From: Ignavibacteriota bacterium
Lineage (GTDB): Bacteria > Bacteroidota > Ignavibacteria > UBA10030 > UBA6906
Assembly (NCBI GenBank): GCA_963801355.1
Contig: CAWDEM010000008.1
Coordinates: 1,952,001 to 2,016,000 of the forward strand
Reading direction: 5' to 3'
Length of the DNA: 64,000 nt
Of this stretch, positions 36,616 through 52,160 are shown piece by piece. The notes below the pieces were generated by a model, which was not told the origin of the DNA, did no database searches, and saw nothing but the letters and a program-made list of their open reading frames with translations. The position numbers and the translations under genes were made by a program. Numbering within the stretch: position 1 is the first letter of the stretch; the number at the start of each line of letters is the position of its first letter.

Positions 36616-38103
36616 CTACCAGGAATACCGGACAGTATACTTCACCACAGTTTCTTCGTCCTTCTTGATTTTCACCGGAAAACGCAGCGTCGACTGATCC
36701 ACCTTTTCCCAGGTGGTACTCGCGTTCACGATTTCCCACTGGCTCCAGCGCCAGGGGTGTTCGTACACCATCACTTCCACCTGCGTTGACTTGTGGTTTC
36801 GCACCTTGACTTCGATGCTTTCTTCCACAACATGCCCGTTGGAGTAGGACTTGAAATCCTTCTGCGCGCGCTCACCGACGATATCGAAGGCGTTGCCCAG
36901 ATAGAGCCGGAGCTCTTCATCTTTGGGCGTGTGGTCAATCTGGTCTTCCCCGATGAACTGCTCCTTGCTGTCCTCATCACGCTTGTATACTCGCACTTTT
37001 CCTTTCGGCAGCGGTATACCGAGGCCGGACTTGTCATCGTTTTTGAATGCAACGTACACACCCACCTTGGGGTTGGATTGCTGGCCGAAACTCCCCTGAG
37101 AACGATACGAGTAGTTGTTGTACCAGTAGCGCCACTGGTTCGCGAGACCGTCGTAGATGAACATTTTCTTCGCGGCGACGTTGTGGCCTGACGTAAGCTC
37201 AATTTGCTTCGTTTCATTGTTGTCGACGCTCGTCCGTCGCTGCAACGTGTAGAGCTTGTACTCAAAGAGCTCGCTCTGTTTGAACTGCGGAGCCGCGGCT
37301 TCGTCGACAGCCATGGCCTTCGACATCCGCATTGCACCCCCGAACTCTTCCTGCACGACATTGACGTCTCCCGCGACGAGTTTCAGCCCCGCATTGGAGA
37401 AGTCTGTCCCGGACGAATTCGTTATCGTCACCCACCCGGTCAGATCGAGTCTGGCATCATCGCTGGACAGTAATGCCACGTAGTTCGCCGACCAATTGAG
37501 GCCGCCCGCCAGGTAGCTGATTTCGGCCTTGTGGGTCCCCTCCTTGGTATTAGAAACGAGCCATTCGAGCTGGGGCTTGAGTATCAGGCCGTCCGGAAGG
37601 CTTGGGAGGACCAATCGTCCTGCCGGACTTATTTCGATTTTCCCGTTGATATCCGCTACCATTCCGCCGATCATGGTCTGGCCCGTGTACCCGGTTGCCA
37701 GCAGTTTCCCGCTCACCGTGTATTCCTTTTTGGTTTCGGGATCCACGCGGATGAATTCGACGGTCTTCCCAATGTATCGCTCCAGAAGTTTGGACGGGTG
37801 AACAAGGTCGTACTGGTAGCTCTGTTCGAGCACCTTAACGGCAGACGGTTCCGTGAGACTGAGGAAATGCAGGGATGTGCCGTCGATCGTGGCCGGGATG
37901 TCCGGCAGAATCGCCCGGCTCATCCCGCGGGGCAGATTCAATGACCGTTCCTCCCGGATCAACGAGAGGTTCTGATTGTAGATTGTCAGATCTACCGTTG
38001 CGCGTTCGCCGGCGATGTTGGTTTTCATCGTCTGCGCCACGGTGGCAGTGAGATTTGCGAGCATGAAAGCCGCGAGCAGTACTGCTGCCGGGAAGTGTCT
38101 CAT
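36616..38103 (-). CDS. DUF4139-domain exported protein
   Basis: ATG 38103, signal peptide; LTIYNQNL, SYLAGGLNWSANY, LKLVAGDV, LPKGKVRVY, FIGEDQIDHTP. Confidence 0.85.
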   Translation of the reverse strand: MRHFPAAVLLAAFMLANLTATVAQTMKTNIAGERATVDLTIYNQNLSLIREERSLNLPRGMSRAILPDIPATIDGTSLHFLSLTEPSAVKVLEQSYQYDLVHPSKLLERYIGKTVEFIRVDPETKKEYTVSGKLLATGYTGQTMIGGMVADINGKIEISPAGRLVLPSLPDGLILKPQLEWLVSNTKEGTHKAEISYLAGGLNWSANYVALLSSDDARLDLTGWVTITNSSGTDFSNAGLKLVAGDVNVVQEEFGGAMRMSKAMAVDEAAAPQFKQSELFEYKLYTLQRRTSVDNNETKQIELTSGHNVAAKKMFIYDGLANQWRYWYNNYSYRSQGSFGQQSNPKVGVYVAFKNDDKSGLGIPLPKGKVRVYKRDEDSKEQFIGEDQIDHTPKDEELRLYLGNAFDIVGERAQKDFKSYSNGHVVEESIEVKVRNHKSTQVEVMVYEHPWRWSQWEIVNASTTWEKVDQSTLRFPVKIKKDEETVVKYTVRYSW

Positions 38104-38197
38104 TGTTCCTCTCCGTAATGTTGAAAGATGAGTCTGTTTGTCGTACTTTATGCCATTCACCTTCTGCCTGTTCATGTCATTAATAAGTGAAAGGTAA

Positions 38198-38782
38198 ATG
38201 AAATCTCCGCTGCTTTTTTTCGATAGCGATGCCCGGATTCTGGATGGCATCCGGCAGGGAGATGAATCGGCGCTTGTGACGCTGTATGAAGCCCACCGGC
38301 GGCCAATTACGGCACATGTGATGCGCAATAACGGCACCCAGGATGATGCGAATGATGTCTTTCAGGAAGCCCTGGTCATTCTCTGGGAGCGCGTACGAGC
38401 CGGCAACTATCAGCACACTGCAGCCCTGGGGACATTCCTGTATGCCACAGCACGGAACCTCTGGCTCCGCCGCCTTGCCGTCGCATGGCGCGAAAGGCCG
38501 CTGGATCCAGACAGCGATGGCACCTCCAGCGATGATCCTTCACCCCTGGAAGATCTCGTCGCACACGAGACCACCACCGCCGTGCGGGACGCCCTGGACC
38601 GGCTGGGTGAACCGTGCCGCTCCCTTCTCGTGCTCTTCTATTGGGAGGAGGCGTCGATGGAGGAAATCGCCCGGCAACTGGGCCTGGCCAATGCGGCCAC
38701 AGCGAAATCAAAGAAGTATCAATGCAAAGAGCAACTCAAACGTTTGATGGAAGGAACCACCCACGGCCATGAACGGGGCTGA
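38198..38782 (+). CDS. ECF sigma factor
   Basis: Region 2 DANDVFQEAL...TFLYATARNLW; region 4 LGEPCRSLL...SMEEIARQLG. Confidence 0.9.
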   Translation: MKSPLLFFDSDARILDGIRQGDESALVTLYEAHRRPITAHVMRNNGTQDDANDVFQEALVILWERVRAGNYQHTAALGTFLYATARNLWLRRLAVAWRERPLDPDSDGTSSDDPSPLEDLVAHETTTAVRDALDRLGEPCRSLLVLFYWEEASMEEIARQLGLANAATAKSKKYQCKEQLKRLMEGTTHGHERG

Positions 38783-39806
38783 GAACAATCATCTCCTGCC
38801 GGAGACTATCGAAGATGCCGCCCTGGGGCGTCTGACACCCGACGAGCGTTCGAGAGTCGAATCCCACGTGCGCGACTGCGCCCTCTGTAGGGAGGCAATG
38901 GAACAGGAACGACTCATCGCCGCCGGAACAAAGGCATGGGGCCGCGCGGCTATGAAACAGAAGTTGGCGGGCCGGATTGCGGCCGCATCACAACAACGCA
39001 CACCCTGGCCTCACATCCTCTCGGCAGCCGCACTTCTGATTGTTATCATCGGTGTCGGCGTGCTCTTCCGATGGCGCTCCACCAACCGGGAACCGGAAGT
39101 GTCCTATTCCGATTCGGTCCTTTCGGGCGAATCGACAAAGAACGCCCCAACGGCTCCGGCCCCCTCTATCGCATCCGAGGAATCCTTCCGGGACCAGCTG
39201 CGTGAAAAGGACTCCCCTGCCGACCATGAAATCAGCCGACAGGACAAGAAAGGTGCACCCCGGACCGGGGCTCAGATGCCAGCGACCCGCACGGAAGCGG
39301 CGGCTGCCGAGGAACTGAAGAAACCGGCACAGGAACTGCCTGGTCCGGAGCAGCCTGTGTTGATGAAGTCAGTCACGGCTGACGAAGCCGTGAAGTCACC
39401 GGACATGGACGTCTGGGTGGAAGGCATGCAGTGGAGCACTCCCTACACCGGCGGCATGCAGACCCAGCCGGCCGGCGCTTCGAACCAGGGGGTGTCGGCG
39501 AACAGGCTCGAAGCACGCAGCAAAGCCCTCAAAAACGAAATGGCGCCGACTCCTGTTTTTGTCATTAACCAGCGTCCGCGAGGAGAGTTGCACGAGACTC
39601 GAGGGGGCGGCAAAGCAATAAAGACCACTCCTGCACATGTCGTGCGGGCGGGAGACACTCTGTACGTGACACTGTACCTGGATACGCTGTTGACTCCGCA
39701 GCAGCTGCGGTCGACCTTCGGACAGCAGGCGACGCCGGATTCATTTCACATCATGCTCCCCGACAGAATTCTCGGGTACAGAATCCCGGGGGGTCTTGCG
39801 CATTAG
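38769..39806 (+). CDS. Zinc-finger (HxxxCxxC) transmembrane anti-sigma factor
   Basis: HVRDCALC, single TM, periplasmic low-complexity region; overlaps the sigma gene end. Confidence 0.85.
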   Translation: MNGAENNHLLPETIEDAALGRLTPDERSRVESHVRDCALCREAMEQERLIAAGTKAWGRAAMKQKLAGRIAAASQQRTPWPHILSAAALLIVIIGVGVLFRWRSTNREPEVSYSDSVLSGESTKNAPTAPAPSIASEESFRDQLREKDSPADHEISRQDKKGAPRTGAQMPATRTEAAAAEELKKPAQELPGPEQPVLMKSVTADEAVKSPDMDVWVEGMQWSTPYTGGMQTQPAGASNQGVSANRLEARSKALKNEMAPTPVFVINQRPRGELHETRGGGKAIKTTPAHVVRAGDTLYVTLYLDTLLTPQQLRSTFGQQATPDSFHIMLPDRILGYRIPGGLAH

Positions 39807-39911
39807 TGCTACGGCGTAAGACCTGTGACAACCGATGGAGTGTTCTGACCGCAACACTCTTCTGCACCTTCTGAGCTTGACATCACATCTCTCTACTGCA
39901 CCCACTCACTT

Positions 39912-41441
39912 TTAATGCTTCTGCGAGAACCAGAGAGGGAGATACGTGCGGGCACCGTATCCCGGTATGGCCAGTACGTTATCCACTTCTGCTGAATTGT
40001 CCGGGCCGTCGAGTGACGACCAGTGATGATAGTATCCCGCCGCCTGCACGAAAACGGTCCTGTGCATCCCATTTGCGAGCGACGGGACCGGATAGGAGAG
40101 GAGGACCGTGTCTCCCATCAGAGATGTGAGATAGCTGTCGTCCCGGTTCGCAACGAGCGGGGTGCAATCCGCTCCCCTTGAACCGGTCGCTGTCGCTGCA
40201 CGTACCGTCACACACTTCACTGGCATGTCTATCGACTCATCCACCCCGATCTGGTCTATGCGCCAGAGATCTGCCGTGCATTCAAGTCGGACGCGGAGTA
40301 CGCGTGCCCCGGGAGAAGGTACCGGCACGACGAGGATCTGTTCCTTCAGCAACTCTTCACCGGAGTCCATGAACACACCGGCCTTCTGCCACTCCGTGCC
40401 ATCCCAGACACTGACATGGAGCAAGCCCTCGCGCAGGAGAAACCCGCGCATCTGGTTCCCCTTGGCGGGGTCGTGCTCCAGCCTTCGAATCCATTGGGCG
40501 TATCCGCTGCCGCAAAGCTCTGAAAGTCGGTTGAATGTGAAAGAGGGCAGGAGCGTATTTTGTCCTCGCATCAGCAACTTCACCGATCCGGAGTTGCTCT
40601 TCAACTGGAACTCCGCCTCGAGCCGGTCGGTGAATTCCTCGGAATCGCCCTCCGACCCAACGTGCTTTTGACTTTCCCACAGGAGCCCGTCAGGTTCCCT
40701 CACAACTTCAAGCACCGACCCGGCGTTTCCATCGACACACTTCACGGGAGGCAGCAACGACGTAACGGTGTGGAACACTCCATCGGCTGAAGCCAGGACC
40801 TGAACATCATCCTGAACATCGACAGCGGAGAGTGTGAGTTCATTCACATAGTCTGTCTCCAGCCGCTCATTCATCAGTTTGATCAGATATTCGCCGTTGG
40901 ACGGCTCGATGTGCTCCAGGCGGTCGATCACCCTCCGTTCAGCGCCTTTATATATAGAGCCGGCAAAGGTCTCAGACGAAAGGACGAATCGGGATCCATC
41001 GAATGCGTAGACGAATGGACATGACCGAGTTTGTGGGTATGTAATATGATCAGTTGCCTCAAGGCCGTTTGTCGTCTGGAAGGCCGTTGCTACGAGACCG
41101 ACGGTTGAGCCGACGAGGCCAGCAAATACCACGGATTTGAAGAAATTGCCCTCTTTCAGATAAAGGTAGTCGATGGAATCGAGCGGGATTTGTCCGTCAT
41201 ATACAACATCCTCACCCTTCTGTAGCAGGCCTGCGAATTCCAATGTGCTATCCCTGAGAGTGTAGCGATCCAACCTGTATTCAGAACCATCGCGTGTGAT
41301 CACCACGAGCGGCTGCTGTTCTACACGCGGGCTGAGGTCAGAACGATTTGTTACCTCCCGGTACGTGTAGAGATAGGAACAGCCGGACATCGCCAGGAGT
41401 GCAGCAACGCTGGCAGCGACAACGAGATTCTGGATCATCAT
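39912..41441 (-). CDS. Lipoprotein of unknown function with an SCPFVY-type domain
   Basis: Lipobox LAMSGC; internal hydrophobic helix; SCPFVYAFDG...NERLETDY motif. Confidence 0.75.
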   Translation of the reverse strand: MMIQNLVVAASVAALLAMSGCSYLYTYREVTNRSDLSPRVEQQPLVVITRDGSEYRLDRYTLRDSTLEFAGLLQKGEDVVYDGQIPLDSIDYLYLKEGNFFKSVVFAGLVGSTVGLVATAFQTTNGLEATDHITYPQTRSCPFVYAFDGSRFVLSSETFAGSIYKGAERRVIDRLEHIEPSNGEYLIKLMNERLETDYVNELTLSAVDVQDDVQVLASADGVFHTVTSLLPPVKCVDGNAGSVLEVVREPDGLLWESQKHVGSEGDSEEFTDRLEAEFQLKSNSGSVKLLMRGQNTLLPSFTFNRLSELCGSGYAQWIRRLEHDPAKGNQMRGFLLREGLLHVSVWDGTEWQKAGVFMDSGEELLKEQILVVPVPSPGARVLRVRLECTADLWRIDQIGVDESIDMPVKCVTVRAATATGSRGADCTPLVANRDDSYLTSLMGDTVLLSYPVPSLANGMHRTVFVQAAGYYHHWSSLDGPDNSAEVDNVLAIPGYGARTYLPLWFSQKH

Positions 41442-42205
41442 GGCGTTGGCCCTCCTGAAAAGTGAAACAGGATTCTTGCGCCAGCCGAGAAACTGGAGAA
41501 ATTGGCGCTGCCGCGGTGGGAATTGGACGTGGAAGGCTGCACAAGATAGTAGGACCCGTCCAGAATCACCGAAAAATCCTCTATGAGTTCCAACTCCACC
41601 CCTCCACGAAGAAATCCCCCAAACTGCTGAGCCTCCATGTTGACCCCGCTGAGAATCCTGCCATTCCCCAGGGCGGCGTCATATTTCGCAGCGACGGTCG
41701 TACGGAAGAAGACAATCCCGGGACCGACGAAGCACTGGAAGAAGTTGTTGCCGGCAAACGACGGCATGTAGTATATGCCCAAGGTGCCCGCATAGATCCT
41801 GCTCTTCTCCTCGAAATTCCATCCACCTTCAAGATTCACCCGGAACTTCGAGGAGAAATCTATGCCGAATGAGACCCACATGAGCGGCGATGGAGTGAGT
41901 GTCAGAATGCCCTTGCCGACCTCAATCTCTCGCTTGAGATAGCTCTCCTCCCTGTCTCTCAACACTTGCTGAAGCCCATCAAAGTTTGGGCTGTAGCTTG
42001 TGATCCCGATTGTTCCGAACAGGTGCGGGTAGAAGCGCTTCTCGACGCGATCATGCCGGAATGCGTGGGGCAAGAATTCCGACTGCTCGCGAGATGCTCC
42101 TGCCACCGTTCCGGGACCTCTTTTGAGAGAGTCTCCCTTGCTGTATTGTGCATTTGCAGGAAACATCGCCGCACAGAGGAGGAGAAAAAGAAGGAGTGTT
42201 CGCAT
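41438..42205 (-). CDS. Small outer-membrane beta-barrel protein (OmpW/OmpA-barrel-like)
   Basis: Signal peptide; amphipathic strands ending FSAGARILFHF; 4-nt overlap with the lipoprotein gene. Confidence 0.65.
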   Translation of the reverse strand: MRTLLLFLLLCAAMFPANAQYSKGDSLKRGPGTVAGASREQSEFLPHAFRHDRVEKRFYPHLFGTIGITSYSPNFDGLQQVLRDREESYLKREIEVGKGILTLTPSPLMWVSFGIDFSSKFRVNLEGGWNFEEKSRIYAGTLGIYYMPSFAGNNFFQCFVGPGIVFFRTTVAAKYDAALGNGRILSGVNMEAQQFGGFLRGGVELELIEDFSVILDGSYYLVQPSTSNSHRGSANFSSFSAGARILFHFSGGPTP

Positions 42206-42276
42206 CGCGCACCTCTATTTCAAAAAGCATCACCCACCAATCTGGCCGCTTCCTCTTGCATCAGGAATCACATGCA

Positions 42277-42318
42277 AATGTAGCCCGCGGCTCCGGCTTC
42301 CATGTCACGGAAATGTCA
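42277..42318 (-). promoter_or_regulatory. Activator-type promoter C: direct-repeat box + -10
   Basis: Minus strand TGACA-TTTCCG-TGACA-N20-TACATT. Confidence 0.75.
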
Positions 42319-42381
42319 AAGGACTTACATATTCTGTTTGGGGAGTACAAGTGGCCTTCGGATGTCCCCCTGGCAGGAAGG

Positions 42382-42485
42382 TCAGGCTAAAAAGTCCCAG
42401 AATCAAGCCTGGGGAAAACCTCAGGCTTTTTTGTAAGGCTTTCTTGTCAGGGAAAAAACTCAGGCTATTTTGTCAGGCTTTTTTC
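42382..42485. repeat. Degenerate 13-bp tandem array (TCAGGCTTTTTTG-like, 8 in-phase units)
   Basis: tcaggctaaaaag / tcccagaatcaag / cctggggaaaacc / tcaggcttttttg / taaggctttcttg / tcagggaaaaaac / tcaggctattttg / tcaggcttttttc. Confidence 0.75.
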
Positions 42486-42517
42486 TATGTCCCAGGCTTC
42501 ATTTTATGTCCAATACT

Positions 42518-42559
42518 TGACGAATCTTTGACAACCCTCCCCCCCGGAACGCCTAATTT
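42518..42559 (+). promoter_or_regulatory. Activator-type promoter A: direct-repeat box + -10
   Basis: TGACG-AATCTT-TGACA-N20-TAATTT, upstream of RBS GAGGAG and ATG 42588. Confidence 0.75.
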
Positions 42560-42587
42560 ATCATCAGGAAATTAGAGGAGCTCAGCA

Positions 42588-43547
42588 ATGGAATCTCAAA
42601 TCACCACCCTCCGCGCTATGTGGATCACCATGCGCCCGTATCTGCTATTCGTTTCAGGGATTACGGGTATCGCCGGAATGGCGCTCAGCTCCACTACATC
42701 GGCTTTGCCGCTCTTCTCTGTATTCATCGCGTCATTCTTTGCCTACGGCTTTGGCCAGGCACTCACCGATTGCTTCCAGACCGACACCGATTCGATCTCT
42801 GCCCCTTACCGGCCGCTCGCAGCCGGTAAAGTCTCGCGCACGGCCATTCTCGTCATGAGCCTCCTCGGCCTCACAGCATGCGTCACCATTCTGGCCCTCA
42901 GAAATCCCTGGAACCTCGCCATCGGTCTCACAGGCGCCGCTGGACTCGCAACGTATACCACATTCAAACGGCGCTGGTGGGGTGGACCCTGGTACAATGC
43001 CTGGATCGTGGCCGGTCTTTGTGTCATGGGATTTCTCGGCGCAAACGGCGAAACACCGGCCCTGTTTCCGGCCGCCTTTCTCCCTATGCTTGCCACCGTC
43101 TTCTTCGGCTACGCCAACTTCGTCCTTTCAGGATATTTCAAGGACATCCGGGCTGATGCTGCCACCGGGTACTTGACATTTCCCGTGACCTTCGGGCGCC
43201 GGCCAGCCGCGATCGCCAGCGACCTTCTCGCCGTGCTCTTCCTGGCCTCGTCGGTCTGGGTCGCCATCATTGTGCTGGGCTCGACACAGCCCGAATCTTC
43301 TCATTTTTGGGCGCTGATCTTCGCCGTCCCCGGTGTCACGTATCTCGTGACTGCACAGATCCGGCTCCACCGGAATCGCACGGATCAGGAGGCATACGCG
43401 CCAATCCTCCGCGTGGTCCACGCATACATACTTGTCCTTTCTGCGCTGGCCTCGCTGCTGCATCCGGGATGGACTGTACTGCTTGTCATCCACTACACTC
43501 TCTTTGTTTTCGTTCTCTCCCGCCGCCCGGAGGTATCACAGATATGA
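42588..43547 (+). CDS. UbiA-superfamily prenyltransferase (chlorophyll synthase/DGGGP synthase-like)
   Basis: MRP start, multiple TMs, Asp motifs TDCFQTDTDSISAPYRPLAAG and FKDIRADAATG. Confidence 0.85.
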   Translation: MESQITTLRAMWITMRPYLLFVSGITGIAGMALSSTTSALPLFSVFIASFFAYGFGQALTDCFQTDTDSISAPYRPLAAGKVSRTAILVMSLLGLTACVTILALRNPWNLAIGLTGAAGLATYTTFKRRWWGGPWYNAWIVAGLCVMGFLGANGETPALFPAAFLPMLATVFFGYANFVLSGYFKDIRADAATGYLTFPVTFGRRPAAIASDLLAVLFLASSVWVAIIVLGSTQPESSHFWALIFAVPGVTYLVTAQIRLHRNRTDQEAYAPILRVVHAYILVLSALASLLHPGWTVLLVIHYTLFVFVLSRRPEVSQI

Positions 43548-44470
43548 TGATTCTGCTCAATCCACGGGCAGCGGGAGGAAAGGCGCCGGAAAAATGGCGC
43601 AGGATCTCTGCAGTCCTCCCACCCCACCGGGAGAGAATTGAATTTTGTTTTCTGAATTCGCACACGGACGTGGACGAGCTCGTGGAAAGAGCTGCCAAGC
43701 AGGGAGAATTGCACTATGTTGCCGCCGGAGGGGACGGGACAGTCAATGCTGTGGTCAACGCCCTCATGCGCCTTCCAGACGGACTGCGCAAGCGGGTTGT
43801 GTTCGGGGCCGTAGGACTGGGTTCCAGCAACGACTTTCACAAGCCTTTTGACACCGACCATACCATCGAAGGTGTCCCTGCAAGGTTGAACTTCGCGCGT
43901 CCAACATGGCGCGATGTCGTCCGCGTGGGAACCTCATTCAACGGCCAATCGTCTGTGCACTATTTCCTGATCAATGCAAGTGCAGGTATTGCAGCCGAAG
44001 GGAATGCCCTTTTCAACAAACCGGATTTCCTTCTGGCATGGTTGAAGATGCATGCTACGCCGCTGGCGATCCTGTATGCTGCGCTTCGTGCACTTGCATT
44101 CCACCGGAACCGTCCGCTCACCATCGAATCACCGGGGCATCCGGCGCAGCAATACCGCCTGACAAATCTCGGCATCGTCAAGAATCCTCATTTCTCGGGC
44201 TCACTGCGCTACGATATGCCGGCTCTCTATGACAACGGCAGCATGGGCGTGTTCGTAGCAGAAGAGATGAACCTGTGTGAACGCATTCGTCTCCTCCGGG
44301 CCCTATCATGTGGCGACTTCGGCCGCCTTGCGAAAACGCACACATGGCAGGCTTCTCATTTGACCATTGCAGCTCCGTCATGCTTTCCCCTGGAGCTTGA
44401 CGGTGAAATCCATCAGGCCAGTCGCGCCGAATTTTCCGTATTGCCCCGAATCCTACAGGTGTGCTCATGA
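43544..44470 (+). CDS. Diacylglycerol/sphingosine kinase family (YegS/DAGK_cat) lipid kinase
   Basis: LNPRAAGG, AAGGDGT, GLGSSNDF, LDGE; ATGA overlap with ubiA-like gene. Confidence 0.88.
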   Translation: MMILLNPRAAGGKAPEKWRRISAVLPPHRERIEFCFLNSHTDVDELVERAAKQGELHYVAAGGDGTVNAVVNALMRLPDGLRKRVVFGAVGLGSSNDFHKPFDTDHTIEGVPARLNFARPTWRDVVRVGTSFNGQSSVHYFLINASAGIAAEGNALFNKPDFLLAWLKMHATPLAILYAALRALAFHRNRPLTIESPGHPAQQYRLTNLGIVKNPHFSGSLRYDMPALYDNGSMGVFVAEEMNLCERIRLLRALSCGDFGRLAKTHTWQASHLTIAAPSCFPLELDGEIHQASRAEFSVLPRILQVCS

Positions 44471-45519
44471 TGCAACAGATACATGAAAATAGCTTCATCG
44501 CCCGTCTGGCATCATTCCTGCCTCATCAGCCGGCTCAGCTGAACGGTCTCCAGGAAAGCGATGCCGAGTTAATACGATTGCCCGGGGATGCACATCACAT
44601 CCTCGCCGTCACCACAGACGCAATAGTTGAAGAAATCGAGGCCGGTCTCTATGCCGACCCCTACCTCATCGGCTGGATGACCGTGATGTCAAATCTGAGC
44701 GATCTCGCGGCCGTCGGCGCGGAATCGATCGGACTCCTCGTGGCTGAGACACTCCCGCACGATGCTGCCGAGGAGGATCTCATAGCCCTCCAGACTGGGA
44801 TCCGCGATGCGTGCGTACGGTGTGGCACCTTCGTCCTGGGAGGAGACACCAACTTCAGCGACAGCTTCCGTACGACGGGAACGGCAATGGGGCTGATAAC
44901 GAATGGTTCACCTCTTATGCGCGTCCGATGTGCACCGGGCGAGATCCTGTACTGTACCGGCCGCCTCGGCACCGGGAATGCCTACGCCGCTCGCCAGCTC
45001 TCCGGAGACACACATCCAAATCCCACACTTTATCGCCCGGTCGCCCGCCTGCGGGAAGGCCTCTCTCTCCGCTCCGTTGCTTCCACCTGCATGGATTCCA
45101 GTGACGGCCTGTTTGCATCGCTCGATCAGCTCGGGCGGCTCAACAACTGCGGATTTCAATTGGAGATCGGGTGGGAGAACCAAATAGCGGATGAGGCGTC
45201 ACGTTTCGCAATGAGTTCCGGCCTGGATCCCTGGATGCTCTTTGCCGGTCCTCACGGAGAGTTCGAGCTGGTGTTCACAGTCCCGGAACCCCTTGTCGCG
45301 ACATTGCATCTGGCCGCCGCCAGGGCGGGATGGACTCCCATCCGGCTTGGTGTTGTGAGCGAAAACGCCGGTATCGGTCTGGGAGACTGGGGTCATTTTG
45401 ACCCGGAAGCCCTTGCTGCAATCAGAAACCACCATCTTCGTAGTAGTGCTGAAGTCCGCGCATTTCCTCGTTTTTTGGCAGTTCTGGCGGAAGGATGCAG
45501 GAATTCGACTGAAGGATGA
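44467..45519 (+). CDS. ThiL-like kinase (PurM/AIRS superfamily), divergent thiamine-monophosphate kinase homolog
   Basis: TTDAIVE, SNLSDLAAVGA, LGGDT, MDSSDGL, GEFELVF; ATGA overlap with DAGK gene. Confidence 0.8.
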   Translation: MMQQIHENSFIARLASFLPHQPAQLNGLQESDAELIRLPGDAHHILAVTTDAIVEEIEAGLYADPYLIGWMTVMSNLSDLAAVGAESIGLLVAETLPHDAAEEDLIALQTGIRDACVRCGTFVLGGDTNFSDSFRTTGTAMGLITNGSPLMRVRCAPGEILYCTGRLGTGNAYAARQLSGDTHPNPTLYRPVARLREGLSLRSVASTCMDSSDGLFASLDQLGRLNNCGFQLEIGWENQIADEASRFAMSSGLDPWMLFAGPHGEFELVFTVPEPLVATLHLAAARAGWTPIRLGVVSENAGIGLGDWGHFDPEALAAIRNHHLRSSAEVRAFPRFLAVLAEGCRNSTEG

Positions 45520-45558
45520 CAAAACGGTGACATCTCCCCGCCCCCCATGGCGTAACTT
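45517..45558 (+). promoter_or_regulatory. Activator-type promoter B: direct-repeat box + -10
   Basis: TGACA-AAACGG-TGACA-N20-TAACTT before ATG 45587. Confidence 0.75.
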
Positions 45559-45586
45559 GCAGTAGTTACACAACGGGAGATCGAAC

Positions 45587-46906
45587 ATGAAGACCGATGG
45601 TGTCTATCAGGGTGGAGAGAATTTCGACCTACGCGACGTCCTGCTGAAAGGACGATCGCTTCCCCTTTCCGAGCGAACCGCCTTTTTCCAGAGTTTCCTG
45701 CAGGATGTGAGGCAGCGTGAAGAAAACCTCTGTATGCGGTGCCTCACCTCGCCCTCAGACCGCGAAGTCACGATTCTGGATCCCTCGTCAGGTACCGAAC
45801 GGAAGATGCTCATGTTCGGCTCAAACAACTATTTGGGCCTTGCCACACACCCACATGTCATCCGGCAGACGGCAGCGGCGGTGCAGAGGTATGGCGCGGG
45901 TTTGGGCGGGCCGCCACTCCTCAACGGATATACCGCGCTGCACCGGGAGCTCGAAGAGCGCCTCGCCGCACTGAAGGGAACAGAGGATGCGATGATTTAC
46001 TCGAGCGGTTATGGCGCAAATGTCGGCCTGGTGTCCGGGTTGACGGGAAAGTCGGATATCATATTGTACGACGCCTACAGCCATGCGTCCTTCTGCGATG
46101 GCATTGCACTGTCCGGTGCACAATCGTTTCTCTTCTCGCACAACGATCTCTCGCATCTGACCATGTTGCTGGATCGTGCCCGCACCCGTCCGCATAACGA
46201 CATCTACGTCGGCGTGGAAGGTGTCTATTCGATGGATGGGGATCTGGCGCCGCTGAACAGAATCCTCGAGCTCTGTGATGCCTATGGGGCACATCTGATG
46301 CTTGATGACGCTCACGGCACAGGGGTGTTGGGAGGACACGGAAGAGGCAGCGCCGAACAGGCCGGGGTGGAAGGCCGTATTCCGATGACGATGGGAACAT
46401 TCAGCAAAGCATTCTCGGCCACGGGAGGATTCGTGGCTGCAAGCAAAGCAATCATCGATTACCTCAGGTACTTTGCGCGGTCGTATATGTTCTCTGCCTC
46501 GTTGCCGCCCGCAACGGTCGCAACGGTCATCGCCGGATTGGATGTCCTGGAACGTGAACCTGAAAGACTCCTGCGTCTCCACGAGAACGTAACATATGCC
46601 GCACAGCACCTCAGGAGGATGGGATTTGCCACTCCCGCGCAATCGGCAATTCTCCCTCTTCGCGTGCCGCAGGGGATGGACATTCGTCAGGCTTCCAGGG
46701 TATTCCATGAGAGGGGTATCTTCGTCAACTCTATCGAGTACCCTGCTGTCCCCGTATCCCAGCAGCGATTCCGCATCAGCATGATGGCAACGCACACGCA
46801 CGAGGATATTGACCGCCTGCTCGCGGTTGTCGAAGAAGTCTGGTCACTCCAGCGCCATGACATGAGGGAGGTTGCAGATGAAGCACATCAGCGCAATGCC
46901 GCATGA
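45587..46906 (+). CDS. PLP-dependent alpha-oxoamine synthase (serine palmitoyltransferase/Kbl/BioF family)
   Basis: GSNNYLGL, GYGAN, HAS, EGVYSMDGD, DDAHG, GTFSK (PLP Lys). Confidence 0.9.
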   Translation: MKTDGVYQGGENFDLRDVLLKGRSLPLSERTAFFQSFLQDVRQREENLCMRCLTSPSDREVTILDPSSGTERKMLMFGSNNYLGLATHPHVIRQTAAAVQRYGAGLGGPPLLNGYTALHRELEERLAALKGTEDAMIYSSGYGANVGLVSGLTGKSDIILYDAYSHASFCDGIALSGAQSFLFSHNDLSHLTMLLDRARTRPHNDIYVGVEGVYSMDGDLAPLNRILELCDAYGAHLMLDDAHGTGVLGGHGRGSAEQAGVEGRIPMTMGTFSKAFSATGGFVAASKAIIDYLRYFARSYMFSASLPPATVATVIAGLDVLEREPERLLRLHENVTYAAQHLRRMGFATPAQSAILPLRVPQGMDIRQASRVFHERGIFVNSIEYPAVPVSQQRFRISMMATHTHEDIDRLLAVVEEVWSLQRHDMREVADEAHQRNAA

Positions 46907-48308
46907 TCGGAAGAAACTCCTGATCATTGTCCTCTTTCAAAATCTTGGAGAAGACAACCCGTACTACGCACAGAGTCCTGCGCCGCCATTGCCCGGGATT
47001 CTCCTGGCTGCTCTCACGCCGGATATTGTGGACATCGAAGTCCTGCACGAGATGGTCCGCCCGATCGATTACAGCACCGATGCTGATTTCATCGCGCTCA
47101 GTTTCATGGACTACCTTTCGCCACACGCATACGACGTGGCTGCCCGGTTCCGGGCAATGGGAAAGGTTGTGGTCGGCGGAGGGAAATACGCGTCCACGTT
47201 TCCTGATGAAGTACAACCGCACTTTCATGCAATCCTCGTGGGAGAAGCACAGGAAGTGTGGCCGCAGATGGTCAGCGATATGGTCAACGGCACGCTCAAG
47301 GAACGGTACGAGGCGTCGGCATCACCGTCACTCGAGAATATACCCCCGCCCCGCTACGACCTTGTCGAGAAAGTGTATGCGACGCCCATCGTCACGGAAG
47401 CCACGCGAGGCTGCCCGCATCCCTGCACATACTGCCAGCTGAACATCAAGCGGATGCCCTTCCGCCAACGCCCGATTGCGGACGTCGTCCGTGACCTTTC
47501 AGCGACACAAGGCCTGCCGTGGTACAAGCGGAAAATGGCGATGCTATTGGATAACAATCTCGGCGGGGATCTTACCTACGCCAAGCAGCTGTTGCGTGCA
47601 ATTGCAGGGCTCCGGCTCTGGGGACTGGGCGTGCAGTTCAGCATCGAGTGCCTGCGGGATGATGATTTCATCGAGGCCCTGGCAGAGGCACGCTGCCGCA
47701 TGGCATTCATCGGCATGGAATCTCTTGAACCGAAGAGTCTCGCCGCCGTACAAAAGCGACAGAACAACGTCATGGAGTACCGGTCGATGTTTGAGCGGCT
47801 CCATCGGCGGGGAATACTGACATTTACCGGGTACATGTTTGCACTCGACGAAGACACGACGGAATACTACGACCGGCTCCCCGCACTTCTTGAAGAGGTC
47901 GGGACAACCGTGATCCTGCCGTCCATCGCCATCCCGCTGTACGGCACACCGCTGTACAGGACGGTCGTCGGCGAAGGACGTCTTGTTGACCGGGACCTGT
48001 CGCATTACGAGGGTGACCACATCGTATTCCGGCATAAGCATCTGAGCGAAACTCAGATCCATGAAGCGTATGCCCGGGTCACGATGGGCTTCTACGGCTG
48101 GAAGAACATTCTGAGCCGCTGGGCAAGGTTCATGGGAAAGCAGGAGAAACGGGGATCATGGCGCGCATTTGTCCTCCAACTTCTCATTCTCACATTCATT
48201 TACACGAAGCTGTCGATATTCCAGCGGCACCATGCATTGGTAAGAATCACAGGTGCAAGGAAAGAGGCGGAACCAGCAAGGAAGCAGGAAGAAAAGTTGG
48301 CGGCGTAG
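46878..48308 (+). CDS. B12-binding-domain radical SAM protein
   Basis: N-terminal Rossmann B12 domain (VVVGG), RGCPHPCTYC, IGMES, PLYGT. Confidence 0.88.
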   Translation: MKHISAMPHDRKKLLIIVLFQNLGEDNPYYAQSPAPPLPGILLAALTPDIVDIEVLHEMVRPIDYSTDADFIALSFMDYLSPHAYDVAARFRAMGKVVVGGGKYASTFPDEVQPHFHAILVGEAQEVWPQMVSDMVNGTLKERYEASASPSLENIPPPRYDLVEKVYATPIVTEATRGCPHPCTYCQLNIKRMPFRQRPIADVVRDLSATQGLPWYKRKMAMLLDNNLGGDLTYAKQLLRAIAGLRLWGLGVQFSIECLRDDDFIEALAEARCRMAFIGMESLEPKSLAAVQKRQNNVMEYRSMFERLHRRGILTFTGYMFALDEDTTEYYDRLPALLEEVGTTVILPSIAIPLYGTPLYRTVVGEGRLVDRDLSHYEGDHIVFRHKHLSETQIHEAYARVTMGFYGWKNILSRWARFMGKQEKRGSWRAFVLQLLILTFIYTKLSIFQRHHALVRITGARKEAEPARKQEEKLAA

Positions 48309-48414
48309 GTCCGACCCCAACCGATTGATGATTGTCACTAGTCTATTGACTATTGACAAGTGGTCCGGGTCTGACCCCTTGTGCATGGGGAAGACATAGG
48401 GGTTTGACCCCTAT
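48307..48414. repeat. Three REP-like GGGGTnnGACCCC palindromes between convergent genes
   Basis: AGGTCCGACCCC (48307), GGGTCTGACCCC (48367), ATAGGGGTTTGACCCCTAT (48396). Confidence 0.6.
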
Positions 48415-49091
48415 TTTTGAAATTTGTACCCTGCTGTATGCACCGTGATAATGTGCCTGGGTTTCGTCGCATCGTCCTCGAGTTTCTTCCGGAGAGCCAG
48501 GATATAATTGTCGACCGTCCGTGTCGTGGGAAAGGTTTCGTACCCCCACACCTGGTTCAGCAGCATGCCACGCGTGACCACTTCTCCCTCGTGCTGCACG
48601 AGAAACTTCAGCACTGAGTATTCGCGCACGGAGAGCTTTACCTTCCTTCCTTTCCGCGTCGCCTCCTGTCGGACGAAGTCGACTTCCACCTCTCCGAATG
48701 AGCACGTTTCAATGTCCTTCGTCAATCCCCCCTTACGCCTCAGAAGGGCCCTGACCCGGGCGAGCAGTTCGCGGACGGAAAACGGCTTCGTCATATAGTC
48801 ATCGGCACCCATTTCCAGCCCGAGCACCTTGTCCATCTCCATCCCCTTGGACGTGAGCATCATAATCGGGGTGGATACGCCGCTCCCGCGCAGCTCTTTG
48901 CACACATCCTCCCCGTTGATGTCCGGAAGACCCAGATCCAGGATGATCAGGTCGACGTGTTCATTGCGTCCCAGGGCAAGACCGCGTGCGCCGTTGGGAG
49001 CCGTCAGAACCGTGTAGTGTTCCTTCTCCAGAACGTCCTGCAGCCCCAGCTGAATGGAAGCATCATCTTCAACGATGAGTATGGTCTTCAT
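48411..49091 (-). CDS. OmpR/PhoB-family response regulator
   Basis: ATG 49091 MKTILIVEDD, LDLGLP, GADDYMTKPF, wHTH TRTVDNYILALRKKLE. Confidence 0.95.
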   Translation of the reverse strand: MKTILIVEDDASIQLGLQDVLEKEHYTVLTAPNGARGLALGRNEHVDLIILDLGLPDINGEDVCKELRGSGVSTPIMMLTSKGMEMDKVLGLEMGADDYMTKPFSVRELLARVRALLRRKGGLTKDIETCSFGEVEVDFVRQEATRKGRKVKLSVREYSVLKFLVQHEGEVVTRGMLLNQVWGYETFPTTRTVDNYILALRKKLEDDATKPRHIITVHTAGYKFQK

Positions 49092-49092
49092 G

Positions 49093-51603
49093 TCAGCGGG
49101 AATCCCTCTTGTTGGTGGGACTTCGTTTGCGGGCCTTCTTGACCGTTGGCGGGAGGGGAAACACCAGGGTGAATGTGCTCCCCTTTTCCGGCACACTACG
49201 GACTTCAATCTTTCCCCCGTGTGCATCCATGATGTGCCTCACGACGGAGAGCCCCAATCCGACTCCTTGAATGCGCCTGGGCAGTGACGGGTCGCGGTAG
49301 AACTTCTGAAAGAGGTGCGGCATCACCCCGGCAGGTATTCCGCGTCCGAAATCCTTCACGCTGCACAACACCGTCTTGCCCGTCCTGCCGACGGTGATAC
49401 AGATCTTTTTCTTGTCGCCCGAATACTTCATGGCATTCGTCAGCAGGTTCAGCAGCGCCTCCCTGACCGCGTCCGGATCGGCATTGATCCGGTAGGCATC
49501 AGGCGACTTGCTCCGCCCGTCCCGCGCGACGTCAAGAACAACGCTGTACTGTTCCTTTGCCAGTTGATACTTCATCGTCTGGAGGGTCTCACGGACAAGA
49601 GCATCCAGCCGCACGTTCTGCATGGTGTACTGTTGTTCTCCCTGGTCGATTTTGGACGAGTCCAGAATGGTATTCACCATGCGGTGCAATCGATCTGATT
49701 CGCCTTCAATGATGCGCACATATTCCCGGGCACGCCGGTCGCCGCGGGGGAGCCGTTCCGCAAGGAGTTCGGCAAACATCCTGATGGAGGTCAGCGGCGT
49801 GCGCAGCTCATGAGAGACATACGAAACGAAATCGGACTTCATGACGTTCAGCCGCTGCAGACGGCCGGCTTCATCACTCTTCTCCATCACCGCGCGCTGG
49901 AGCAGGATGCGCTCCATTTCCGCACCCCCCTGCATCGCAAGGTTGCCGAGCAAATCCACATCCTCGCTGGTAAACACCGTACCGGCCTTCTTCCGACCCA
50001 GGAGCAGCATCCCGCGCAATTGCCGGTTGGCACGAATCACGGGGCAGACAAGAGCCAGCTGACATTCTTCAAGGAGTGATGCATCAGCTTCACGATGGGA
50101 GACTCCCGGCTCGATCGCACCGGGGAGTCCGAGAAGTATCCCCCCGGCTTCCTCGGCATGCCGTTTCAGCACCGCGAGGCGATCCGGTGGTCCTGTCTCA
50201 ATCCCCCGCGCGCCGATGAGGCGCAATGCACCGTCGTGATCCACGAGCAGGAATCCGATCCGTTCCACCGGCAGCAGCGTATCGATGCGCTCCACGATCA
50301 GATTCCCCAGATCGTCGACCGTCGCGCATGTCTTCACGTCCCCCTGAAATCTGCGGGCCGCCTGCCGGAAATCGTACCGCACGCGGAAGAATCGTCGATC
50401 CACAGCCTGTTGCACAACCCGGCGCGTCGGCTCGAACAGCAGAGCGAGCACGATCGCCGCCCCCGCAGAAATACCCAGCGACCATCCATACGTGGCATGG
50501 GACACCACTGCAGCTAATCCTCCCACGATGCCCATGTAGACCAGCACCACCATCGCCATGACCGTGCCATAGACCAGACTGCGATTGAGCAGCAGATCAA
50601 TGTCCATGATATGGTATTTGATGATGGAGATGCCGAAGGCCACCGGGATGATACCGGAGGCCAGCAGCATGACCGACTCAGGAACGAGCCCGTAACTCAA
50701 CACCATGGAAGGAATGATCCAAAGCAGGACAAAGGGCAGGAAACCGACGAACATCCCCCAGACCACCCAGCGGAGTTTTCTCCGTTCCGGTTCCTCGCCG
50801 GCTCTGAGGTACGACTGACGTATTGCCCAGAGTCCCCCGGCAACCAGCACAATAAGAAACACCCGTGTGGCACTAAACCACTGGAGGTGCGTGTGGAATG
50901 CGTCGATAGAGTTGCCAGACCAGGCCTGCATGAAGGACATGCCGCTGCCGGTGGCGAGAATGATCGCGGCGCCGTACAAGGGGATGATCAGTCTTCTTCC
51001 CGGTGTTGTGCTGGGGCGAGGAAAGAGGCGCGTCAGATGGAAAAATGCAACCGGGATGAAAGCATACATTGCAGAGAACACAACGCGGACAAGCACTCCG
51101 AGGAAGGCGGGAGCGGTTACGTAGGAACCCCACGTCGTGGAAAGCTGCACCGCCGTGGCAACAGATCCGAAGTGATAGACGAGTGCGGCGGGATCCCCGG
51201 GTTTCTTCCAGACAACGATTAGTCCGACGCCGAAGAAAAGGGTGCTGACGAGGATCACTGACAGGAGGTAAAAAGGGCCGTAGTAATGCTGCAGAACAGC
51301 CTGTTCGATGCGCGGCCCGGTTGCGCCGGCGATGCTCAGGGTCACGGTATCGCCTATCCGGCAACCGTCCAACACAAACTCCAGATCATCCACATACTTC
51401 AGGGGGTGCCCGTTCACGGCGAGGAGGGCCTCACCATCGCGCATCTGTTTTGTGAAAGACTCCCCGGTGACCCTGGTGCAAAAGACGGTATCATTCCAGG
51501 CGCTGATGACAATGGGCAGTCCGGGCTTCGCATTGATCTGCACAATGCCCGCACAACAGAGGATGAAAGCGACGACATCGATCAGGACAATCAGAATGCG
51601 CAT
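49093..51603 (-). CDS. Sensor histidine kinase: TM-PDZ-like-multi-TM-GAF-HisKA-HATPase
   Basis: GEALLAVNG (PDZ-like), many TM helices, GAF (FTSEDVDLL), SHELRTPL, NLLTNAMKY, DFGRG, GVGLGL. Confidence 0.9.
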   Translation of the reverse strand: MRILIVLIDVVAFILCCAGIVQINAKPGLPIVISAWNDTVFCTRVTGESFTKQMRDGEALLAVNGHPLKYVDDLEFVLDGCRIGDTVTLSIAGATGPRIEQAVLQHYYGPFYLLSVILVSTLFFGVGLIVVWKKPGDPAALVYHFGSVATAVQLSTTWGSYVTAPAFLGVLVRVVFSAMYAFIPVAFFHLTRLFPRPSTTPGRRLIIPLYGAAIILATGSGMSFMQAWSGNSIDAFHTHLQWFSATRVFLIVLVAGGLWAIRQSYLRAGEEPERRKLRWVVWGMFVGFLPFVLLWIIPSMVLSYGLVPESVMLLASGIIPVAFGISIIKYHIMDIDLLLNRSLVYGTVMAMVVLVYMGIVGGLAAVVSHATYGWSLGISAGAAIVLALLFEPTRRVVQQAVDRRFFRVRYDFRQAARRFQGDVKTCATVDDLGNLIVERIDTLLPVERIGFLLVDHDGALRLIGARGIETGPPDRLAVLKRHAEEAGGILLGLPGAIEPGVSHREADASLLEECQLALVCPVIRANRQLRGMLLLGRKKAGTVFTSEDVDLLGNLAMQGGAEMERILLQRAVMEKSDEAGRLQRLNVMKSDFVSYVSHELRTPLTSIRMFAELLAERLPRGDRRAREYVRIIEGESDRLHRMVNTILDSSKIDQGEQQYTMQNVRLDALVRETLQTMKYQLAKEQYSVVLDVARDGRSKSPDAYRINADPDAVREALLNLLTNAMKYSGDKKKICITVGRTGKTVLCSVKDFGRGIPAGVMPHLFQKFYRDPSLPRRIQGVGLGLSVVRHIMDAHGGKIEVRSVPEKGSTFTLVFPLPPTVKKARKRSPTNKRDSR

Positions 51604-51642
51604 GGGCGAATATACGCATTCATTTGGTCCTCCGCCAGCACA

Positions 51643-51671
51643 TTGCATTTACACCTCTTTTTCGGTATACT
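51643..51671 (+). promoter_or_regulatory. Sigma70 promoter of smpB-tyrS
   Basis: TTGCAT-N17-TATACT. Confidence 0.65.
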
Positions 51672-51695
51672 ATGCCCGAATTTTCCCCGGAGACA

Positions 51696-52160
51696 ATGGC
51701 ACCCCAGGAGGAAGCCGGCGAGAAAGTCGTCGCATCGAACCGGAAAGCCCGGCATGAATATGCAATTCTTGATTCAATCGAAGCCGGCCTGGTCCTGACG
51801 GGGACAGAAGTCAAGTCGCTGCGCCAGGGAAACGCGAACATTGCCGAGGCGTTTGCACGCATAGCCCGGGGCGAGGTCTGGCTGGAGGGAATGCATGTCA
51901 GCCCGTACGAACAGGGCAGTTATGCCAATGTCGACCCGTTGCGCACACGAAAACTCCTCCTCCACAAGAAAGAAATCCGGCGGCTTCTCGCCCGCAGCGG
52001 GGAACCGGGTGTAACGCTGATTCCGCTCAGGGTGTATTTCAAGAAGGGTGTCGCAAAGGTACAGCTCGGCATCTGCAAGGGGAAACGGGCGTATGACCGC
52101 CGCCAGGACATCGCACGCCGGGAAATCGAACGAGACCTCAAGAGAACCTACGCACGGTAG
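51696..52160 (+). CDS. smpB: SsrA-binding protein
   Basis: NRKARHEY, EAGLVLTGTEVKSLR, RKLLLHKKEI, GKRAYDRR. Confidence 0.97.
   Translation: MAPQEEAGEKVVASNRKARHEYAILDSIEAGLVLTGTEVKSLRQGNANIAEAFARIARGEVWLEGMHVSPYEQGSYANVDPLRTRKLLLHKKEIRRLLARSGEPGVTLIPLRVYFKKGVAKVQLGICKGKRAYDRRQDIARREIERDLKRTYAR

Follow-up and report, generated by a model that had tools for sequence, protein, structure and literature searches.

Three promoters of common design lie in a 64,000-nucleotide stretch of an Ignavibacteriota bacterium genome (GCA_963801355.1, contig CAWDEM010000008.1, positions 1,952,001 to 2,016,000 of the forward strand; the whole stretch is referred to here as the window). Each carries an operator of 11-bp-phased direct repeats, followed after a 20-nt spacer by a -10-like TAnnTT hexamer, and together they precede a cluster of putative lipid-biosynthetic genes and a divergent pair of genes for presumed envelope proteins, next to which a two-component system is encoded. 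The box is a real, strongly conserved promoter architecture and not a chance occurrence. Our preferred reading, to which we assign a probability of about 70%, is that the three sites are activator promoters sharing one operator, which the adjacent OmpR/PhoB-family response regulator would bind and thereby switch on the cluster. The sites and their elements are the following:

P1, 42507..42559, plus strand, before the UbiA, lipid kinase, and ThiL-like genes: distal degenerate repeat TGTCC (42507-42511), repeats TGACG (42518-42522) and TGACA (42529-42533), 20-nt spacer (42534-42553), -10-like TAATTT (42554-42559), probable start near 42566; core 42518-42559, TGACG-AATCTT-TGACA-N20-TAATTT.
P2, 45506..45558, plus strand, before the Spt/BioF-like and B12-radical SAM genes: distal degenerate repeat CGACT (45506-45510), repeats 45517-45521 and 45528-45532, spacer 45533-45552, TAACTT (45553-45558), probable start near 45565; core 45517-45558, TGACA-AAACGG-TGACA-N20-TAACTT.
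P3, 42277..42329, minus strand, divergent from P1 and before the genes for a 255-aa and a 509-aa protein: distal degenerate repeat TGTAA (42329-42325), repeats 42318-42314 and 42307-42303, spacer 42302-42283, TACATT (42282-42277), probable start near 42270; core 42318-42277, TGACA-TTTCCG-TGACA-N20-TACATT.

The original prediction, made from the letters of the window, had named three instances of the pattern TGAC(A/G)-N6-TGACA-N20-TAnnTT, and these are present letter for letter where it placed them. Across both strands of the window the pattern matches three times, versus no match in each of 100 dinucleotide-preserving shuffles. As had also been claimed, each site faces its downstream gene, the hexamer ending 28 nt before the ATG at 42588 for P1, 28 nt before the ATG at 45587 for P2, and 71 nt before the minus-strand ATG at 42205 for P3. 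A position weight matrix (PWM) built from 74 distinct instances in the window and related loci scored P1, P2, and P3 at 36.4, 29.3, and 36.4 bits; no other site in the window reached 12 bits, and the maximum over 20 shuffles was 9.5. The TGA stop codon of the ThiL-like gene (45517-45519) supplies the first three bases of the middle repeat of P2, and the distal repeat and part of the operator fall within that gene's coding sequence.

For comparison, 44 UbiA homologues were aligned and the resulting profile was used to scan species-representative genomes, which yielded 80 loci with flanks of up to 10 kb on each side. Most come from metagenome-assembled genomes of Ignavibacteriota, Ignavibacteriaceae, or 'Bacteroidota', and a few from Gemmatimonadota, Candidatus Eisenbacteria, or unclassified bacteria; the nearest shows 87% protein identity, and the window's own genome is not in the set. 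The box is present in 59 of the 80 loci. With a loosened spacer length, the pattern recurs at homologous positions in many of them: approximately 70 nt before UbiA (or before a short-chain dehydrogenase/reductase, SDR), approximately 70-110 nt before the serine palmitoyltransferase (Spt)-like gene, and divergently. A P1-type box stands about 70 nt before the UbiA homologue in L001, L002, L004-L006, and others, the divergent P3-type site is kept in L001-L003, L025, and others, and a site lies within 600 nt upstream of the Spt homologue in 38 of 53 loci.

The geometry is kept to the base. Over the 1.26 Mb of the window and the 80 loci, two exact TGACA copies are separated by 11 nt in 96 cases, by 22 nt in 36, and by 33 nt in 19; each remaining distance in the 5-39 nt range is represented by six pairs or fewer (12 nt by two, 10 nt by none), which bears out the 11-bp period that had been described as exact. 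A TAnnTT hexamer follows TGACR-N6-TGACA after exactly 20 nt in 55 of 114 double repeats; a spacer of 19 nt occurs three times, one of 31 nt seven times (these are the upstream pair of a triple repeat), and the remainder at most twice each. Allowing one core mismatch gave 78 sites, 74 of them with N20; of the 78, 28 precede Spt homologues, 20 UbiA homologues, one the 255-aa gene of the window, and 29 other or unassigned open reading frames (ORFs). The proximal repeat is the best kept and deviates in a single one of the 78. Columns left unconstrained are conserved as well: T occupies the sixth hexamer position in 55/55, and a purine stands 7 nt past the hexamer in 50/55, which fits the expectation for a transcription start site.

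Two features of the original description needed amendment. It had presented the operator as a double repeat, and the two TGACA cores stand, yet a third, degenerate half-site lies 11 bp upstream of the first, with the consensus TT(T/c)(G/T)AC(a), in which the C is kept in 51/55 and the A in 43/55. T[GT]AC occurs at -11 in 30/55 sites and at -22 in 1/55; within the window this third repeat is weak (TGTCC, CGACT, and TGTAA). It had also called the 20-nt spacer GC-rich. The length holds, whereas the composition does not: P1, P2, and P3 each have 16 G+C of 20 bases in the spacer, yet the mean over the 74 sites is 50% (loci, 46%) and spacer GC rises with that of the locus (r = 0.78), and a GC-rich spacer is thus a feature of this genome and not of the motif. 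The spacer has no conserved sequence, but it shows a strand bias, with C at 33% versus G at 17% on the coding strand (74 sites).

An alignment of the divergent region from four species (the window, L001, L002, and L003) shows repeats, hexamers, and ribosome-binding sites to be invariant, while the stretch separating the two promoters differs in length and cannot be aligned. The divergent boxes are 200 nt apart in the window versus 100 (L001) and 68 (L002). In the window the intervening DNA (42369-42511) contains nested direct repeats, with 39-nt units present three times plus 13- and 19-nt units, all of which contain CAGGCT and a T-run, and it includes a terminator-like hairpin (42405-42428); nothing equivalent to this stretch, about 100 nt long, exists in L001 or L002. 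An Rfam scan of 38000-53000 gave no riboswitch or leader RNA match, and a scan with sigma-70 and terminator consensus sequences returned nothing over shuffle level. A sigma-54 reading of P2 was dropped by eye, as the GG-GC spacing is wrong.

The genes downstream of the three sites are the following:

42588..43547, plus strand: UbiA-family prenyltransferase, 319 aa (Pfam UbiA, E=2.4e-26), first gene after P1.
43544..44470, plus strand: lipid kinase of the YegS/DAGK type (Pfam DAGK_cat and YegS_C), start approximate.
44461..45519, plus strand: AIR-synthase-related ThiL-like kinase, 352 aa (Pfam AIRS).
45587..46906, plus strand: pyridoxal phosphate-dependent acyltransferase of the BioF/Kbl/serine-palmitoyltransferase type, 439 aa (Pfam Aminotran_1_2, E=1.2e-56), first gene after P2.
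46872..48308, plus strand: B12-binding radical SAM enzyme, 478 aa (Pfam Radical_SAM and B12-binding).
41438..42205, minus strand: 255-aa protein of no known family, first gene after P3.
39912..41441, minus strand: 509-aa probable lipoprotein, with a 4-nt overlap with the 255-aa gene.

The first five are syntenic in most of the 80 loci. UbiA homologues, having served as the query, are found in all 80 (in 70 by family clustering), the lipid kinase family in 63, the ThiL-like family in 64, the Spt-like family in 54, and the B12-radical SAM family in 51. Their matches to named functions stay under the respective thresholds: the UbiA protein has a weak, below-cutoff likeness to DGGGP synthases, the lipid kinase (whose listed ORF starts at 43307, inside the UbiA gene) is below cutoff for all NCBIfam lipid kinase models, the ThiL-like kinase scores 147.6 bits against thiL TIGR01379 (cutoff 184), and the acyltransferase scores 374.9 against bioF (cutoff 426) and 356.6 against the CFB serine palmitoyltransferase model (cutoff 640). 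The 255-aa protein has homologues only in L001 and L002 among the loci and no Pfam or NCBIfam match; its Atlas neighbors are unnamed clusters, the nearest named ones being OMP_b-brl/OmpA_like at a 22% share; an outer-membrane beta-barrel is only a lead. The 509-aa protein, with no NCBIfam family and no Pfam match even at E<=5, belongs to a family of 2294 representatives (50% clustering) at E<=0.001, with a near-invariant Cys21 after a hydrophobic N-terminus, and is by its sequence a probable lipoprotein of this large unnamed family. Its Atlas neighbors are unnamed clusters, mostly from Acidobacteriota and Gemmatimonadota, and its structural model (predicted local distance difference test, pLDDT, 88) shows beta-sandwich domains into which a helical segment is inserted, and nothing in the PDB matches it meaningfully (best template modeling, TM, score 0.2).

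The proposal that the motif ties seven genes together holds locally, and relatives extend the list of targets with 5'-nucleotidases, a further secreted protein, and the SDR. Ten loci (L052, L059, L015, L030, L035, L024, L034, L056, L012, and L039) have a box before 5'-nucleotidase/metallophosphoesterases with a type IX secretion system (T9SS) tail. In six loci the box precedes a T9SS-tailed protein of 424-466 aa:

L001, 6658-7968, minus strand.
L002, 8339-9739, minus strand.
L013, 8439-9728, minus strand.
L017, 8306-9589, minus strand.
L025, 8370-9704, minus strand.
L010, 19150-20421, plus strand.

In L001 and L002 this gene comes directly after P3 and is followed by the homologues of the 255-aa and 509-aa genes; the corresponding interval of the window (42205-42277) lacks it, with only T9SS-tail similarity elsewhere, and the window lineage has probably lost it. 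Its first approximately 340 residues have no Pfam domain. The mature N-terminus reads W-G-N-A-T-H, and, together with the conserved His/Asp residues, is reminiscent of zinc phospholipase C or P1 nuclease; our tests did not confirm this. Pfam Zn_dep_PLPC matched weakly in one of the six members (E=0.17), a profile search of PDB sequences gave no match, and the top Foldseek match of the model (pLDDT 68) is zinc phospholipase C with E=4e-3, a probability of 0.21, and a TM score of 0.11. All 55 relatives are labeled 'hypothetical'. The SDR gene stands before UbiA in 36 loci (e.g., L009:2703-3545, plus strand, and L010:9104-9928, plus strand), bears the box in many of them, and does not occur in the window or its closest relatives; its product is weakly similar to many SDR models, including 3-ketodihydrosphingosine reductase (121.7 bits, cutoff 400). 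Single boxes precede a fatty-acid desaturase, a DUF3108 protein, and an Omp85-family protein. In four loci, including L067 (6904-8939, minus strand), a polyprenyl synthetase and an FMN-dependent dehydrogenase are encoded divergently beside the SDR-UbiA cluster, and this arrangement hints at an isoprenoid diphosphate as substrate of the UbiA enzyme.

The candidate regulatory system is encoded by two genes that converge on the radical SAM gene:

48411..49091, minus strand: OmpR/PhoB-family response regulator, 226 aa (Pfam Response_reg, E=8e-29; Trans_reg_C, E=1.1e-26).
49093..51648, minus strand: sensor histidine kinase, 851 aa (Pfam GAF, HisKA, HATPase_c), ending 1 nt before the start of the regulator gene.

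The regulator aligns over its full length with RegX3, MtrA, and KdpE (best solved relative RegX3, 2oqr, E=4.6e-51), and by its domains and cognate kinase is classified as an OmpR/PhoB-family two-component response regulator. D52, in an LDL motif, is invariant in 22 orthologues and, from its position, is the predicted phospho-acceptor. The kinase begins with a hydrophobic segment, followed by a long run of hydrophobic, likely membrane segments (read by eye). Orthologues of the regulator (51-85% identity over the full length; paralogues <=38%) adjoin the cluster in 33 loci, in 27-28 of which regulator and kinase occur together. These are the only regulatory families that recur beside the cluster in the 80 loci, the regulator in 32-33 and the kinase in 27-28, sigma factors and an NtrC-type regulator each being found in 3-4 neighborhoods.

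Several observations connect this regulator with the box. At least one box is present in 32 of the 33 loci with a regulator orthologue. Twelve loci with full 10-kb flanks were scored as lacking the regulator, and eight of these have the box and four do not; one of the eight (L079) carries an orthologue at 49%, just under the threshold, and the four with neither box nor adjacent regulator (L023, L070, L072, and L074) are from Gemmatimonadota, Eisenbacteria, or unclassified bacteria. Box and regulator thus share a phyletic range. In the recognition helix, R191, T192, V193, D194, N195, L198, R201, and K202 are invariant among the 22 orthologues (52-85% identity, mean column identity 67%), and this fits the invariant DNA core. 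The box itself has the form of an operator for this family, with tandem direct repeats about one helical turn apart by the -35 region and the proximal repeat at about -37 to -33 relative to the probable start. PhoB-type regulators, as presented in PMC4415409 and PMC1906773, bind 11-nt direct repeat units beside the -10 element and contact sigma. The original assignment of the box to the adjacent regulator is therefore supported by box-regulator co-occurrence and by the invariant helix, as a putative one; judged by synteny and family analogy, both of which support it well, docking of this regulator on the box is most likely.

Some ten loci encode, between the OmpR-type regulator and the kinase, a second response regulator in which a receiver is fused to an adenylate/guanylate cyclase domain. 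This gene is absent from the window; where present, it suggests a branched output via a cyclic nucleotide. Examples are as follows, and similar genes occur in L067, L079, L020, L031, L062, L057, and L040:

L059, 16470-17390, minus strand: receiver-cyclase response regulator.
L028, 9945-10856, minus strand: receiver-cyclase response regulator.
L045, 18839-19780, minus strand: receiver-cyclase response regulator.

Set against control by the adjacent regulator are a number of observations. What joins regulator and box is synteny and family analogy, and three half-sites are an odd number for a dimer. One locus with a regulator orthologue (L057) has no site of at least 14 bits, and at that threshold a site is also missing upstream of Spt in 15 of 53 cases and upstream of UbiA in 20 of 68. 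The PWM finds 130 sites of at least 14 bits in the 80 loci versus 0-5 in five local shuffles, but it was built on the same loci that it scanned, and 74 of the 130 are circular by construction. Lastly, seven full-flank loci (L024, L035, L037, L041, L050, L052, and L054) have the box and no regulator orthologue within 10 kb, from which it follows that the regulator need not adjoin and that another paralogue is conceivable.

These seven loci also speak for a different reader of the operator, namely an OmpR/PhoB-family regulator encoded elsewhere, such as a true PhoB, with the adjacent pair linked to the cluster for some other reason. The core TGACA-N6-TGACA, moreover, reads on the opposite strand as TGTCA-N6-TGTCA, the core of the E. 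coli PHO box (CTGTCAT units, PMC4415409), and secreted 5'-nucleotidases are targets in ten loci. A further point in its favor is that no site precedes the adjacent kinase, whether in the window or among the 24 loci with at least 150 nt upstream of that gene (0/24), which agrees with the original statement that autoregulation is not evident. However, the box accompanies the adjacent regulator in all but one of its loci and no other regulator recurs nearby, the recognition helix is as invariant as would be expected for the reader of an invariant core, and lineages that have the biosynthetic genes without the box are also without the regulator; nor does the lack of an orthologue within 10 kb mean that there is none in the genome. 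We therefore regard a distant regulator as unlikely.

A sigma factor could be thought to read the sites directly, with the proximal TGACA as -35 and TAnnTT as -10. A gene for an extracytoplasmic function (ECF) sigma factor lies beyond the divergent operon, 100 bp from its end, together with a possible anti-sigma gene:

38198-38782: ECF sigma factor (Sigma70_r2 and r4_2).
38769-39806: putative anti-sigma factor (weak match), overlapping the sigma gene.

Besides this proximity, the high conservation of the proximal repeat would suit such a promoter. Yet the sigma gene is adjacent in only four of the 80 loci, all close relatives (L001, L002, L022, and L025), versus 59 with the box, so the two are not inherited together, and three 11-bp-phased half-sites with a 20-nt spacer are unlike a sigma -35/-10 pair, for which ECF factors typically have a spacing of 16-17 nt; alternative-sigma promoters are accordingly very improbable. 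The sigma/anti-sigma block adjoins genes for DUF4139 and TonB-C proteins and is syntenic only in the same four loci.

Least probable of all are constitutive housekeeping promoters with a chance-duplicated -35-like TTGACA and no dedicated regulator: TGACA is indeed part of the sigma-70 -35 consensus, and TAnnTT resembles a -10 element as well as the Bacteroidetes -7 element, but the spacer is 20 nt, the repeats are limited to a specific gene set with none at the other approximately 45 window genes, and the exact 11/22/33-nt phasing is kept across the phylum. Isolated TTGAC sites in the same loci show a spacer to TA...T that peaks at 17 nt (34 versus 13-31 elsewhere), so the geometry of the box is not that of an ordinary -35. 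The housekeeping promoter of the Fibrobacteres-Chlorobi-Bacteroidetes (FCB) group has a -33 TTG and a -7 TAnnTTTG about 19 nt apart. This form was also considered and rejected: TAnnTT is invariant, but the next T is present in 16/55 sites and the G after it in 15/55, the TTG of TTGACA lies 23 nt upstream, and TTG-Nx-TAnnTTTG shows no 19-nt peak in the loci.

Under activation by the adjacent regulator, the membrane-embedded GAF kinase would phosphorylate the response regulator on some signal, and the phosphorylated protein would bind head-to-tail where a -35 element normally sits, on three T(G/T)ACA half-sites 11 bp apart at about -59, -48, and -37, and recruit RNA polymerase. A fixed 20-bp spacer of free sequence would lead to the TAnnTT element, 7 nt after which transcription probably starts. 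Three units would be switched on in this way: UbiA, the lipid kinase, and the ThiL-like kinase (unit 1); the Spt/BioF-like acyltransferase and the B12-radical SAM enzyme (unit 2); and the divergent 255-aa and 509-aa envelope proteins (unit 3). In relatives, the same box may also drive the T9SS-secreted 5'-nucleotidases, and with the box before both gene sets, the regulon would couple lipid synthesis with secreted phosphoesterases.

For the signal, two candidates are put forward. Phosphate limitation is the leading guess, with a chance of about one in three; about as likely is a membrane or envelope cue that the membrane-embedded kinase would sense. Secreted 5'-nucleotidases are typical targets in phosphorus scavenging, the solved structure closest to the regulator is RegX3, and the best NCBIfam matches of the kinase are PnpS and PhoR, all of which we counted for phosphate, together with the core shared with the PHO box, the three-box layout of cyanobacterial SphR sites, and the make-up of the phosphate-responsive cluster of Flavobacterium johnsoniae (see below). 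The kinase scores are nonetheless below cutoff (phoR_proteo 180.6 < 334.2; PnpS 202 < 400) and cover the catalytic half only (595-831). Against phosphate stand the N-terminal 440 residues of the kinase, which comprise hydrophobic segments and a GAF domain and are not PhoR-like, and the regulator's scores for PhoB (TIGR02154 196.8 < 296.2) and Bacteroidetes PhoB (NF053854 164.2 < 270). The regulator's DNA-binding domain likewise gives approximately 64 bits to VicR/WalR/RegX3 versus 41 bits to PhoB, and no pst or phoU gene is found in the window or among the annotated recurrent neighborhood families. No PhoA-, PhoD-, or PhoX-type phosphatase was seen. The names of 120 close relatives of the regulator are generic, bar one 'putative phosphate regulon' and one 'PhoP' label. 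With PhoB scores below cutoff and a kinase that is not of the PhoR type, the system as judged from sequence is not filed as PhoBR.

WalR/VicR, B. subtilis PhoP, and RpaB recognize TNACA-like hexamers (TGTWAH, TTAACA, TTACA) in direct repeats one turn apart. The DNA-binding domain of our regulator is closest to VicR/WalR/RegX3 structures, but the protein falls short of the YycF cutoff (197.5 < 340) and the targets are unrelated. The E. coli PhoB system shares the receiver and winged-helix architecture of the regulator and, according to PMC4415409 and PMC1906773, 11-bp tandem repeats at the place of the -35 with a TAnnnT-type -10 downstream; its pentamer core TGTCA is found here on the other strand. 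It differs in that there are three half-sites here. Three further differences argue against phosphate: TGACA is here on the coding strand, in opposite orientation to CTGTCAT, the distance from the proximal repeat to the -10 is 20 bp instead of 10 bp, and autoregulation is not evident. The site of cyanobacterial SphR (a PhoB) is likewise modeled as three tandem boxes with an 11-bp period (8 bp plus a 3-bp linker) in PMC1906773, and differs in half-site sequence and phylum; phosphate control has been shown for SphR and is a guess here. Within the same superphylum is Flavobacterium johnsoniae, whose phoBR lies, according to PMC8115612, in a phosphate-sensitive cluster with a lipid-remodeling glycosyltransferase, hypothetical lipoproteins, and outer-membrane proteins, and in which T9SS-domain proteins and extracellular nucleases are also induced. 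In that account the mix of target types is the same as here, whereas the lipid genes are a glycosyltransferase and PlcP in place of UbiA, kinases, Spt-like, and radical SAM enzymes, and the kinase is listed as PhoR.

Elsewhere in the window, positions 674-33032 form a large alpha-glucan/starch utilization region with GH57, several GH13, and GH31 enzymes, a T9SS-tailed CBM20 protein and amylase, a LacI-type regulator, a MalK-like ATPase, a TonB-dependent receptor-like protein, and a PorV-like protein. Overall, the window outside the cluster and its neighbors holds genes for glycan degradation, T9SS cargo, ATP synthase, and tyrosyl-tRNA synthetase.

To our knowledge, next to nothing has been learned so far about how the mostly uncultured Ignavibacteriota control transcription. 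In the literature on Bacteroidetes Pho boxes, on the composition of the cluster, on sphingolipids and two-component systems of Ignavibacteria, and on TGACA repeats of OmpR-family regulators, no account of this operator, of the regulator, or of the cluster came to light. The present analysis provides a precise operator of fixed geometry with a candidate regulator and a phylum-wide regulon, and it flags a conserved cluster of five to six genes for lipid synthesis (UbiA, two kinases, Spt-like, B12-radical SAM, with or without SDR). The mechanism itself is ordinary, an OmpR/PhoB-type activator on direct repeats; the lipid pathway attached to it is uncharacterized and could make a phosphorus-free lipid. 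A wider reading, which we offer tentatively and consider rather unlikely to hold as a whole, is a phosphorus-stress program of Ignavibacteriota that combines a non-PhoR GAF kinase and one three-repeat operator with nucleotide breakdown and a new lipid pathway. The T9SS-secreted 5'-nucleotidases, and possibly a new zinc phosphoesterase-like protein, would degrade extracellular nucleic acid and nucleotides, while the Spt-like enzyme (with the SDR in relatives) would make a long-chain alcohol or sphingoid base. A YegS-type and then a ThiL-type kinase would activate the alcohol to a diphosphate, and UbiA would transfer the activated chain to give a phosphorus-free ether or prenyl-type membrane lipid. 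The tie of the lipid cluster to secreted 5'-nucleotidases in any case narrows the guesses as to when the lipid is made.

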